64,000 nt of DNA, taken from the NCBI RefSeq assembly GCF_058153355.1, contig NZ_JBLWLY010000002.1, one strand, 5' to 3'. Shown here in pieces: positions 3,001-9,000 of this stretch; the stretch's first letter is position 1; each line of letters opens with the position of its first letter. The stretch is from a plasmid. Made by a program: the position numbers.

Positions 3001-6000
3001 TACCAGATGTTTTGTCATATGTCCAGTTAAGAGGTCCCTGTTCGGAAGCCAGATTTACAGGAGAATCGAAATCTTCCAGCATGACCTGATTCAGGTAATC
3101 AGTTGGTATGACATCCCACCAGTTGGTTGCTCCATTGGGACCTGCATACGCTCTTAATACAGCAACAATAACCCATTTTTTTTGTAAAGCATCATAAGCA
3201 AATAAAGGCGAACCACTGTCACCCGGGGCTCCGTAGTTCGGTAATGGCCCGTTTACAGGGTTATATGTTTGCCCGGGGTTAGAAACTATTGTTGTATTAG
3301 ATATTAGAGGAATGCCGATGGTTCCGCCTGTTTTAAAAGCATATCCGCCTGCAATGCTGGTTAATTTCCCGTCCTTGTCTTTTGTGTACTGAGTACCACT
3401 GCCAATCCGATAAAAAGCAGTGTAACGCTCGGTATTTTTATAAGCATTGCTTTTGGTTCCTTCATCTGTAACTGCCGAAGGAATAACTTCGGTAACCAGT
3501 TTATTCAGACGTGGGGCATGGAAGTCAACATAAGGGTGGTTATTACGGTCAACAAGGGAATATGAGTTTTTTCCGTTTCCAAATCCAACACTCTGGTATC
3601 CACCATTATGTTTTACGCTGACGATATACTGAGGAGACACCAGCGTGGCAACTCCATTGGAGCTTACGCTGCTGAAATCGGTCACTGGAGCTTTATCCAG
3701 TCGGCCAACAAGTTTTCCATTTTTGTCATATACTGGAATATCTGTGGCACCAGGCACAAAAAGTCCTTTATTTTCTGCAAAATCCCGGTAAATCTGATAG
3801 GAGATATCTGAACGAACAATACCAGCCTCTGATATCGCCGGATATAACAAACAGAGAGCAGGAGCAGCGATTAATGATATTTTTAACTTTAGCTCTGTTT
3901 TTTTTATTATGCGACTGGCAAGCTCAGATACGGCAATAAGCCCTCCTGTAGCAGGGCAATACTTAAGGGAATAGATTTTGTTCACAACAAGTTCTCCATA
4001 CTATTCACAGATACAATGAATGCACAAATAAAAACAGTGATAACATCTAGTTATCACAAAGGAAGTGTTGAACGCTGATATGTCATTATCATCTTAGAGT
4101 ACTTGACATGCTGTTATTTTGTAATGATCCCATATATGGAAGATAAATTCTGTGAGGAGGTTTTTAATTTTCTATACAAAACTGATCTGAGGTGTACTGG
4201 CAATAGCGGACACCACCATTTGTTCTTTTTCTAAGCAGTCATCTGATAATATTTTATCCTGAAGGCTGCCGGGGAGATATTCCCCAGACGAGAGTGACGA
4301 CGCTGACGATTGTAGAAAATCTCAATGTATTCCCGTATTACTGAGATGGCTTCATCCCGGCTCTTAAAACGATAGTGGCTCAGGCTTTCATTTTTCAGCG
4401 TTCCCCAGAAGCTTTCCATCGGAGCGTTGTCGTAACAGTTACCTTTACGCGACATTGATGTTTTCAGACCAGACTGCTCCTGTATGACCCGGTAATCGTA
4501 TGCGCAGTACTGTGAACCTCGCTCGGAGTGGTGGATTAGCCCGGCAGGTGGGCGCTGGCTCCTGAGCGCCATAAACAGGGCTTTACCCGTCAACTCTTTC
4601 GTCATGCGCTCTCCCGTGGCGTAACCGACAATTTCGCACGTATAAACATCTTTGACGCCGGCGAGATACAGCCATCCTTTCCGGGTGGCAACATACGTTA
4701 TATCTGCGACCCAGACCTGATTAGGTGCTGTGGGCGTAAAGTTCTGATTCAGCAGATTCGGCGTAACCGGCAGATTGTGGTCAGAGTTTGTGGTCGCCCT
4801 GAACTTGCGTTTCTGCTTACAGTGCAGCCTCAGCTCCTTACGAAGACGTGCCAGTCTGTCACGACCGACGATAATTCCGTTATCTGCCAGCTCCGTCTGG
4901 AGCCGCCGGGTTCCATATGTTTCGCGAGTGCGGATATGTGCCACCTTAATCTCCAGTTTTAGCCGCTCATCACTTTGTTTTCTGTCTGAGGGGGCATGCT
5001 GTACCCAGTCGTAATAACCGCTCCTGGATACACCAGGTACCCGACACATCGCTTCAACAGGGAATTGTTGTCGCCATTGTTCGACTAACGCGTATTTTTC
5101 AGCGACTCCCGGGCAAAATACGCTGTTGCTTTTTTTAATATATCTCGCTCAAGTCGTGCTTCATTTAAAGCCTTACGCAGTTGCATAACTTCCAGCCACT
5201 GTGCGGGAGCCAGGTGTATTGAGCCCTTTTCTTGCGGCGGTAACCCATTGTCCTAAAGTGCCTTCAGGAACAGATAATCGGGAAGCGCCTTCACTGAGCG
5301 AAAGCTGATTTTCAGGAACCGTTTTGACGGCTTCGGCTTTAAACTCCGTAGAGTAACGTTGGGTTTTTCTGCTCATTATTGGCTCCTTCTGATGCCATTC
5401 TATTTCAGGAAGGAGTGTCCGTTAAACTCAGGCTACCTCACGCTTCAGGCGGGCATTTTCAGCGGCCAGTTCACTTTCACGCTCAGACGAGGTCATCTGT
5501 TGCTGCAGTTTGCTGCGCCACGCATAGAGCTGAGATTCATACAGGCTGAGTTCACGGGCTGCGGCAGCAACACCGATGCGTTCAGCAAGCTTCAGGGCTT
5601 CACTGCGAAATTCAGGCGAATGCTGTTTACGTGTTTTTTTGCTGGTTGATACTGTTTTTGTCATGTGAGTCACCTCTGACTGAGAATTTACTCACTTAGC
5701 CGCGTGTCCACTATTGCTGGGTAAGATCAATTTGCTCACTGGTATTTACTACGTGCATCGAATGAGTGATCAAGAGCCGTATGACGCGAGAGTGTCACGT
5801 ACGGTTCCGTGAGCAGCCGGAGAGTGAAACTCTCTCCGGCTGACTCGACTCGCAGGTTCCGACAGCGGTGATGAACATGCAGCGGTGTTGTTCTCGCTGA
5901 TCGGCACATGCCGTCTGAACAATGTGGAGCCAGAAAAATGGCTGCGTTACGTTATTGAATATATCCAGGACTGACCGGCAAACCGGGTACGCGATCTGTT

Positions 6001-9000
6001 GCCCTGGAAAGTTGATCTGACTTCTCAGTAAATATCAATATGATTCTGACGAGCCGCTTACCTTTGAACAGAGAAAGGGGAGAGGGATCCCACATCCATG
6101 AGCTAGGAAAATACAAAAACTGGCTATACAACAATTCAATATATTAGGACTTACTTGCGAGGAGAAATATAGCACCGCTCAGGCAATTCTTGGGTATTTA
6201 CTTTTCTTAGTTTCTTTACTCGGGATGTTCTGTCATCAGAAAGGCGATTCTAAATTTGTAATATAGTCACTCATATTCCCACGTAATTTCTTTAGATCAA
6301 TATATTGCACATTTTTCTCAAAAAACTGATCGGAAATAAGATTTGCAACATTGCTTGTTGTATCATTTTTAACGCTTCTATTCATCCCTTCACAAAGTTC
6401 GTCCATTTTCTTTTTGAAATAACTGCTTCCTGATACAAGATGATTTATGGAACTTTGTGCAGCATTGATGTCTAGAGAAATGCGATAATCTTTCTCAACC
6501 TGTTTAAATATCTGTTTACGGAGGTTATCGCCGATTTCTCGGCTGTGTTCTGCACAAAACTTATCAATACATTGGTTTACCACCCGGGATACGTAGACTT
6601 TTTTTTCATCATTTTTCCAATCTGTAATATTTTCACCGATTTGTTCTGAAACAGAGCTCAAAATACTAGTATTTATTTTGGTTGATGATATTTTTACTAT
6701 CCTTTTCCCCATTGTACAGCGGATAATCTCATCCACCTTTCCTGAAAAATATCTTTTGTGAGATAAACTGATTCCAAAATTATTAAAAGATGTTCCAAGC
6801 ATTATAATCACTTTGTCATGTAAAATAGTAACATTGTCATTATTTTAGCTGATTCAAACAATTCTGTAAATGCTTTGAGTTCTTTACTCCCTTGGCTCAA
6901 TGATGGACCGTCTGGAATCCCAGAGACTAAACTCTCTGAGAAAGAGAGTATGAAAAAACTTGGGGCAGTCCCTAAATGAAGGGACCAACAGCGGTAAAAT
7001 AACCGGCATCATTCATAATGATGCCCTGTTAGTTGTAGTTATGAAGATTTACGTCATTAAAATTGCTGTTCGTAGTGTCAGTCCTATGGTCTGGCATCAG
7101 CTGAGGATCGTAGCCGATACATCACTGGCTTCACGACATTCGTGTTGAGGCTATTCATGAAAACTCCACGCAGAAAACGCCGTTTTGTATAAACGGTCAC
7201 GGTATGCCCGGAGCCACTGTTGCTGATGAATTCGATAAAACCTTGGCGTTTCTTGAAGCTATCGTTAATGCGGATAATGAAACAACGATAGGTGAGATTC
7301 GCTCTTTTGCCGACGCCCTGGACGCTGTCCGGTTCAATCGCAACAAAATCAACCGGCAGCTGAGCAAACCCAACCTTGCCTCTCTGGCGCTGGAGCATGA
7401 AGTGATTTGGCTGGGACGTAGCCGCTGACAGCTTCTATAAAAGTATGATCCTACCCACGTAATATGAACACAGGCTTAAGCGAGGTTCTGGTTTTCAAAT
7501 TGTTCAGGACTGAGACCTCCACACCAACTGTGCCGTCGTCAGCGATTGTAATCGCACTTGATATAATTAAACACTGTGTATTTCATTTGTGGAGTCTCCA
7601 GTCTGAGGGGGCTTTATGCATTCCGTATTGGGCACTATGATGCCAGAAATCTGCGAGGCTCCACACCTTCCTGTATTTCCCTTCCTCTATCACAGTGCAC
7701 TTTACTTAATAGGGTGGGATGTGTTCATTACATTTATTGTGTTTTTTATGATTGTTTTTGCGTCCAGTGTCGTTCGTCATGGGAAACTGGTTCTATGGGT
7801 AGTATCGCTCAGTCTAGTTAACTGTTTGTTTCTTTTTAGAAATTAAGCAGATCACACAATTCGGGGAGAGATCCTTCTAAGTGCAATTCTTTGCAGCTAT
7901 TTAGCACACTTAAAACAACTCTTGTATTTTGTCAGAAATAATATTAAACGTGTCTTGTTCATTATTGTTAAGTCTGTCTGCTATTTCTGTAAGTTTTATC
8001 CCACTATGATGGCATATATTTATATATGCCATCATAGCCTCGATATTCCCTTTCCCTGCGGCCAGAAATAATCCTGGTAAACCCTCATTATCTCTTACAT
8101 CCAATAGTTTAATCGTTTCTTTTGGTGATAAATCAAAAGTTTTAATAAAATCTCCATAAGCTTGAATCGCAGCGGAATGACCTTCTTGAAGAGCTATGAA
8201 CAAAGCAGATTCCCCAGCATTATTTCGTGCTGCAAGAACTTCTAGTTTTTCCTCTTTGGGTATTTCGGCTGCCAACAGCGATTCACCGTATTTACGTGCT
8301 GCATCGGCATTTCCATGCCAAATCAATGAAAACAAATTATGGTGGTTATACTCCTTATTATTCTTTGTCGGAATGGATATGCTCTGTATTTTGGCCAATT
8401 TTCTGAAAGAAACACCACTATATCCCCCCCCTGATTTTTCTTCATTGATGGCGTGGGATATAGCGGAATTTGTCACGTTAATGATATTACTTTTCATTCC
8501 TTTATTTTCATTAGCAGTATTGCTGCCTATTATTAGGTGCATATTTTTGTTGTTTGCTGGATGTAATTCATAGTTATTTATTGACATTTTTGTTCATCCT
8601 TTTTGCTAAAAAAAAACAATAACCTATTTTTGTAATGTAATAGATATTAGTCTATTGCTAATCTAAAAAAATCATTGCCACATTGAATGGCTATATTCAC
8701 CAATAAATTCTTTCGATTTCGTATATTGACATATCGTAGATATATCTTATCCCTAAGATTCAATAATCGAGTCCGTTTACCATTCTGTGCAAGCGCCTTC
8801 ACTCAGAAGTGACCGTCAAGGCGATCACCAAACTTGATAATAAAGCAGCTCATTGCCATACGCCAGTCCTTAAGGGGCGTTGTCCATTTCTGTGATGCTG
8901 CCTAGATTTAACTGCCAGCTCCGGCTTATCTACATCTAAATATGTGAGCCTAATACCGCTACACTTTGGCCAGACTATGTTTTTCTCCGGGAAGTGGGCT

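Follow-up and report, generated by a model that had tools for sequence, protein, structure and literature searches.

How does the 3' end of a group II intron come to lie beside a virulence gene, joined on one side to the last part of a transposase gene and on the other to the terminus of a different insertion sequence (IS)? The question is raised by a 64,000-nucleotide stretch of plasmid DNA (NCBI RefSeq assembly GCF_058153355.1, contig NZ_JBLWLY010000002.1), here called the window, which is part of a virulence plasmid of the invasion plasmid (pINV) type found in Shigella and enteroinvasive Escherichia coli (EIEC). The fragment, at positions 5730-5849, derives from E.c.I3, a bacterial class D group II intron, and it is very probably the non-functional fossil of a copy of this intron that once resided in an IS679-like element next to the gene ipgB2, with a history that is in part observed and in part reconstructed.

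The identity of the fragment is established by comparison with a second copy in the same window. Positions 5730-6061 (plus strand) align with the reverse complement of 12359-12690 with 18 mismatches over 332-333 nt and no gaps (94.6% identity, BLAST E value 6e-149). A preliminary description of the locus had assigned 5728-5849 to the intron and 5850-6061 to exon 2 of the IS66-family transposase gene tnpC. The pairwise alignment upholds this division, as the similarity is not confined to the exon and reaches 120 nt into the intron, but the homology begins at 5730 rather than at 5728, and 5728-5729 are the last bases of an IS3 inverted repeat. The intron part (5730-5849, plus strand) matches 116 of 120 positions of the 1824-nt intron in the window, with four mismatches. 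It consists of the last 11 codons and the stop codon of the maturase open reading frame (ORF), which form the tail of domain IV (~5730-5765, plus strand), followed by domain V (5774-5807, plus strand), folded as a 34-nt hairpin, and domain VI (5810-5847, plus strand), in which a bulged A at 5843 lies 7 nt before the 3' splice site. Its last bases, up to 5849, are ...CTCGAC, so that the boundary between intron and exon 2 falls between 5849 and 5850. The gathering score of 40 of the Rfam model RF00029 (group II domains V-VI) was exceeded by both copies, with 56.5 bits at 5772-5849 (plus strand) and 57.1 bits at 12571-12648 (minus strand), and domains V and VI of the remnant and of the full copy fold into the same two hairpins at -46.2 and -45.3 kcal/mol (z ~ -7 and -6.3). 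One of the four intron differences, G to A at 5821, gives domain VI an A-U pair in place of a G.U pair. The domain V hairpin, the bulged branch-point A of domain VI and the AY 3' end (...GAC) mark the sequence as a group II intron fragment. It falls short of a complete mobile intron, as only 120 nt are left, without the 5' GUGYG, domains I-III, most of domain IV and the reverse transcriptase (RT), and the RF01999 model for domains I-IV matched only the full copy (14205-14321) and not the remnant.

The sequence that follows (5850-6061, plus strand) comprises exon 2 of tnpC of an IS679-like (IS66-family) element and the right inverted repeat, and differs from 12359-12570 at 14 of 212 positions. 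In the frame of the full copy it translates as FAGSDSGDEHAAVLFSLIGTCRLNNVEPEKWLRYVIEYIQD followed by a stop, since the codon at 5972-5974, TGG in the full copy, is TGA here, the original stop codon being situated at 6029-6031; the in-frame stop noted in the preliminary description is thus real. The stub matches the IS66 C-terminal element of Pfam (PF13817, 39.8 bits) and is annotated in RefSeq as a pseudogene, "transposase domain-containing protein". The right end of the element, ...CGAGCCGCTTAC (terminus ...CGCTTAC), finishes at 6061, and the terminus GTAAGCGGCTCG at 6050-6061 (minus strand) is identical to that of the full copy at 12359-12370. An inverted repeat starting with GTAAGCG and the C-terminal domain of TnpC are features of the IS66 family, of which a single end is left here; all that lay upstream of intron nucleotide 1705, including tnpA, tnpB and the left inverted repeat, is gone. 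IS66 3'-end remnants that hold no intron sequence are present also at 45196-45345 and 63074-63110, and in the former the codon that reads TGA in the stub at 5850-6061 is still TGG.

The copy that served as reference is a complete IS679-like element of 4511 bp (12359-16869, minus strand) with tnpA, tnpB, a split tnpC and a full-length E.c.I3 of 1824 nt that starts with GTGTG (12571-14394, minus strand) and is inserted in tnpC between the codons for ...GRKNWL and FAGSD.... Its intron-encoded protein is intact (410 aa, with RVT_1 and GIIM domains), and the joined exons specify a TnpC of 523 aa in which each of the four Pfam domains of IS66 is present. It has been reported that E.c.I3 specifically targets IS679 and that three distinct fragments of E.c.I3 are present on the Shigella virulence plasmid (Leclercq & Cordaux 2012, PLoS One 7:e52268, PMC3522654), full-length copies being listed at 1824 bp in the supplementary tables of that paper (PMC3522654). 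The full copy in the window has the published length, and the remnant can be assigned to E.c.I3 by its high identity and its position at the homing site in IS679 tnpC. With the full-length E.c.I3 copies in IS679 (pB171, E. coli ED1a and 536, and window positions 12359-16869) the remnant shares the tnpC site, the fold of domains V and VI and the frame of exon 2, at 94-95% identity over 332 nt; it differs from them in lacking domains I-III, most of domain IV and the RT ORF.

The fragment itself has been described before. E.c.I3-tr3 is a fragment of 120/122 bp, 95-96% similar to E.c.I3-1 (PMC3522654, Tables S2/S3), with published coordinates 21636-21755 in pCP301, 19693-19812 in Ss046, 21615-21734 in Sd197, 23915-24036 in Sb227 and 25890-26009 in CDC3083-94 (PMC3522654). 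These coincide with our own matches, the one in Ss046 ending at 19812 as published, and in pCP301 tr3 sits between ipgB2 and the ORF of an IS3. Judged from its sequence, 5730-5849 is E.c.I3-tr3, the same 120/122-bp fragment next to ipgB2 on a Shigella virulence plasmid. The difference lies in its surroundings: here it adjoins an IS3 cut to 289 bp by the end of an IS600, whereas the IS3 of the published pINVs is complete or internally deleted. The fragment is 98.5-99.1% identical across pINVs, and the version in the window differs from other tr3 copies at 4-5 of 332 positions. The earlier suggestion that the intron-bearing IS66 was once present in at least two copies is correct, in view of the fragments tr2, tr3 and tr4 on pINV, but had already been published (PMC3522654).

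What, then, separated the fragment from the rest of the intron? The sequence that abuts it is an IS3 left-end stub of 289 bp (5441-5729, minus strand) containing the left inverted repeat (IRL) and the start of orfA. Read on the minus strand its terminus, TGATCTTACCC..., ends at 5729. The assignment to IS3 is based on the TGATC... terminus, the helix-turn-helix region of orfA (an 81-aa ORF at 5428-5673, minus strand, matches HTH_Tnp_1) and 99.65% identity over the IRL-proximal 289 bp to the complete IS3 of the S. sonnei pINV. The point at which the terminus joins the intron, 33 nt upstream of the stop codon of the maturase ORF, falls within domain IV, as the preliminary description had it. Moreover, this breakpoint is identical in pCP301 and pWR501 (S. 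flexneri) and in the pINVs of S. sonnei, S. dysenteriae, S. boydii and EIEC. When a chimera of the 3' 530 nt of the intron, exon 2 and the ipgB2 flank was searched in PLSDB, none of the 1885 records that matched covered it to >=80%, as an uncut intron beside the ipgB2 flank would have done; in every pINV the break falls at the IS3 junction. As the breakpoint is the same in all of them and none in PLSDB is uncut, the IS3 event predates the divergence of the known pINVs.

The simplest account of such a junction would be a nested series of insertions, in which the intron entered IS66, IS3 entered the intron and IS600 entered IS3, all at this place, with only the left parts lost since. The exact IS termini at both junctions speak in favor of this account, as does the order of events, which agrees with the distribution of the junctions among plasmids. 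The behavior of IS3 in related plasmids argues otherwise. S. sonnei and S. dysenteriae have a complete IS3 at the ipgB2 locus, while in pCP301, pWR501 and EIEC O121 ~656 bp are missing from its interior. The complete IS3 is flanked by AAG and ATT and hence by no 3-bp target-site duplication, its far flank in S. sonnei, S. dysenteriae, pCP301, pWR501 and EIEC O121 is one and the same non-intron sequence, and no reciprocal junction between the 5' side of the intron and the right inverted repeat (IRR) of IS3 was found in PLSDB. Nor did the window contain the far flank of the S. sonnei type, which was sought as a partner in an inversion. IS3-like right-end stubs, 81-96% identical to IS3, are scattered over the window at 7447-7577, 10027-10689 and 34760-34988, two IRR-like ends being arranged in tandem at 34760-34850.

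The outermost layer does not conform to simple insertion either. An IS600-type element, a variant of 1253 bp (4188-5440, minus strand), has an orfB with rve and HTH_21 domains and RefSeq matches annotated as IS600 family; its terminus, ...GGCTACCTCA, ends at 5440 and abuts the IS3 stub that begins at 5441, in agreement with the preliminary description. The flanks of the element, ATC and CGC, show no target-site duplication, and IS3 is found on one side only, the left flank being the upstream region of a gene for a Pic-like serine protease autotransporter (SPATE). Target-site duplications, which the preliminary description had proposed to look for at each junction, were thus found neither at IS600 nor at the complete IS3. 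The window contains four complete copies of IS600 that are 100% identical (4188-5440, 24309-25561, 52367-53619 and 58345-59597) and differ from the 1264-bp IS600 of pCP301, to which the 1253-bp variant is 92% identical. None of the four has a 3-bp duplication, which points to repeated recombination between the copies. Importantly for the origin of the locus, the IS600-IS3 junction occurs twice: a block of 1542 bp at 52367-53908 (plus strand) repeats 4188-5729, with the same 289 bp of IS3 and with 2 mismatches (5652, 5686), between outer flanks that differ from those of the first block. Its recurrence, together with the missing duplications, suggests that the junction was most likely made once and then copied or exchanged by recombination. 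Under literal nested insertion the same base would have to have been hit twice independently, recombination being the simpler alternative; with no layer showing a target duplication or partner flank, a far flank of IS3 that is not intron in any pINV examined and a duplicated IS600-IS3 junction, we consider the simple three-layer nest improbable.

The order of events that it proposed has fared better. The IS3-intron junction is present in every pINV examined, while neither PLSDB nor a set of 5,426 complete E. coli genomes has a record that covers the arrangement of IS600, IS3 and intron at 4000-7000; this distribution supports a succession from intron-bearing IS66 to IS3 to IS600. A related locus near spa40 in the EIEC O121 pINV combines IS600 with a fragment of IS1 and an IS3 stub that is longer, and the exact breakpoint of the window is absent from it. 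Further IS600 sequence was noted in the window as partial copies at 42455-43070 and 31442-31725. The second junction block belongs to another wreck of an IS3 (52182-53908), made up of an 83-bp IRR stub, 102 bp at 52265-52366 that had no match among the loci compared, IS600, and an IRL stub of the same 289 bp. On the right it is bordered by sequence that corresponds to the 3' end of phoN1 in pCP301; ospG, only ~95% identical to Shigella, lies upstream. A sequence at 25610-25797 (minus strand) that adjoins one of the IS600 copies matches the Rfam family AS-pc02, an antisense RNA of IncF-type plasmids, with 161 bits.

A history in three steps would account for these observations. An IS679-like element with E.c.I3 in its tnpC would first have been situated 175 bp downstream of ipgB2 (6236-6811, minus strand) in an ancestor of the Shigella and EIEC pINVs, this being the distance that now separates the IS66 right end from the stop codon of this conserved neighbor. 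The remnant itself attests the presence of that copy, and the element was presumably complete. In the second step an end of IS3 would have become joined to the intron, with loss of most of the intron, tnpC exon 1, tnpB, tnpA and the left inverted repeat; the junction is there to be seen in all pINV lineages, and it may have arisen by insertion of IS3 followed by recombination with another IS3, or by an adjacent deletion mediated by IS3. In the third step, within the lineage of this plasmid, IS3 would have been cut to its first 289 bp, bounded by the end of IS600. Most likely IS600 entered an IS3 once, after which the junction moved between IS3 copies while the flanks were reshuffled by homologous recombination. 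The junction may have originated either at the remnant locus or at 52367-53908, and the same step would have set the Pic-like autotransporter gene next to the stub. Several points weigh against this reconstruction. No intermediate, be it a complete intron-bearing IS679 beside ipgB2 or a junction of the 5' part of the intron with the IRR of IS3, was found in PLSDB, so that the first two steps are reconstructed from one junction only, and the timing proposed for the IS600 step would depend on the absence of the arrangement from the databases. In its general traits the locus is a typical example of the IS-on-IS mosaics of pINV, formed by IS600, IS3, IS1, IS629 and IS1294, with termini that abut exactly, missing target-site duplications and recombination between identical copies.

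A further question concerns the relationship of the remnant to the other E.c.I3 copies, and whether the intron reached them by its own mobility or as a passenger of IS679. A third fragment, E.c.I3-tr4, resides at another locus of pCP301 (157225-157686; 471 nt of intron plus exon 2 and inverted repeat) and is absent from the window. It was considered as the missing upstream half of tr3, and rejected as such because both fragments include the same 3' region, which makes tr4 a third copy. Compared with tr3 it has a longer intron part, lacks 12 nt spanning the 3' splice site and has a proximal part of exon 2 that resembles the other allele ("allele A"), yet it has the same derived intron bases and the same change of TGG to TGA. 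The derived bases common to tr3 and tr4 are C at 5735, A at 5821 and C at 5830 in the intron and the TGA and T at 6041 in exon 2, and they are lacking in the full copy of the window, in tr2, in pSCU-106-1 and in E. coli 536. This variant ("allele B"), marked by GGAGAGTGAAAC in domain VI and GACTGACCGG in exon 2, was encountered only as the pINV fragments tr3 and tr4. Among 5,426 complete E. coli genomes, matches to the remnant variant at >=99% came only from eight or nine EIEC pINVs, and every copy bearing ltrA was <=94.9% identical to it. The TGA and the intron variants shared by tr3 and tr4 imply that the nonsense mutation predates the truncation, and the joint inheritance of intron and exon variants is what one would expect of a composite that was duplicated as DNA, either by transposition of the IS with the intron aboard or by conversion. 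The remnant is an ordinary and already known object, to which the present analysis adds that its stop codon and intron variants, being common to tr4, are older than its truncation.

The alternative scenario, in which E.c.I3 retrohomed independently into two divergent copies of IS679, is in keeping with the reported homing of E.c.I3 specifically into IS679 (PMC3522654) and with an exon that is nominally more diverged than the intron between the two copies in the window (14/212 against 4/120). That difference is not significant (p = 0.31), and the intron bases of the remnant travel with the exon TGA and the T at 6041 in tr4, so that we regard independent retrohoming as somewhat unlikely for tr3. 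Elsewhere the intron does appear to have moved between IS679 alleles. In a comparison of 12359-14358 with tr2 of pWR501 and pCP301 the intron differed at 6 of 1788 positions and exon 2 at 7 of 212 (Fisher p = 1.3e-4); the same intron in different IS679 alleles suggests retrohoming or gene conversion between copies, and gene conversion could underlie this pattern as well as the one shared by tr3 and tr4.

No pINV record in PLSDB contained the intact 5' junction that the intron has in the full copy; the sole PLSDB match to the whole query including that junction was an E. coli IncK2/Z plasmid (98.2%). The best-ranked Shigella and EIEC pINV matches in PLSDB start ~36-37 nt into the intron and represent tr2, which in the published pINVs is located elsewhere, with a tnpC piece of its own. 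At the ospD1 locus pCP301 and the S. dysenteriae pINVs join window position 14554 straight to 10223 and are without the 4.3 kb at 10224-14553, and the window looks like the undeleted state of this region. The full copy has no 8-bp target duplication either (ACAGAAGT versus CATGGTTC). We tentatively propose, as a possibility that we would put below an even chance, that tr3 and tr4 are the only trace of a second, extinct allele of E.c.I3 in IS679, which already had the tnpC stop at the time of its multiplication as DNA in the ancestor of pINV, and that this plasmid keeps intact the other, possibly active allele that was lost from all published pINVs.

As for the remaining neighborhood, ospD1 is at 7910-8587 (minus strand), and both ipgB2 and ospD1 of the window are 99.4-99.5% identical to those of the S. 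sonnei, S. dysenteriae and EIEC pINVs. The SPATE gene (1 to ~3985, minus strand) is open for 1333 codons to the edge of the window. It has GTG where Pic has ATG (VNKIYSLKYC...) and only ~82% nucleotide identity to pic. PLSDB yielded nothing close to it, and megablast gave no match of high identity to any of the pINVs there.

One might ask whether a fragment that has been kept in all pINV lineages at 98.5-99.1% identity, with domain V and VI hairpins that are still very stable, was retained for a function, be it as a 3' untranslated region or terminator for ipgB2, or in the form of a domain V-VI RNA that acts in trans. We find this hardly credible. The neighboring DNA is 99.2-99.5% identical across the same plasmids, so the remnant is no better conserved than its surroundings, individual plasmids accumulate substitutions inside domain VI, and the remnant lies on the strand opposite to ipgB2. 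A scan of 5300-7000 for promoters and terminators moreover gave nothing above the expectation from shuffled sequence, and no site of either kind stands out. Domains V and VI are foldable, but without domains I-III, the 5' splice site and the RT the remnant would be able neither to splice nor to move, and on these grounds it is regarded as probably inert. Its persistence is explained by linkage to a virulence gene.

The stub can be seen as a textbook case of the way in which IS-homing group II introns perish on virulence plasmids rich in ISs, in agreement with the extinction model that has been published for such introns in the Enterobacterales. It may be of practical use, as the IS3-intron breakpoint is a stable marker common to all pINV lineages, while the state of IS3 at the locus (complete, internally deleted or cut by IS600) tells these lineages apart. 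The stop codon common to tr3 and tr4 provides a small piece of added evidence for the passive spread of introns as cargo of their host IS. If the proposal of a second, extinct allele is true, pINV would record two successive invasions by an intron riding on an IS, and the lineage of this plasmid would keep the state that preceded fragmentation.

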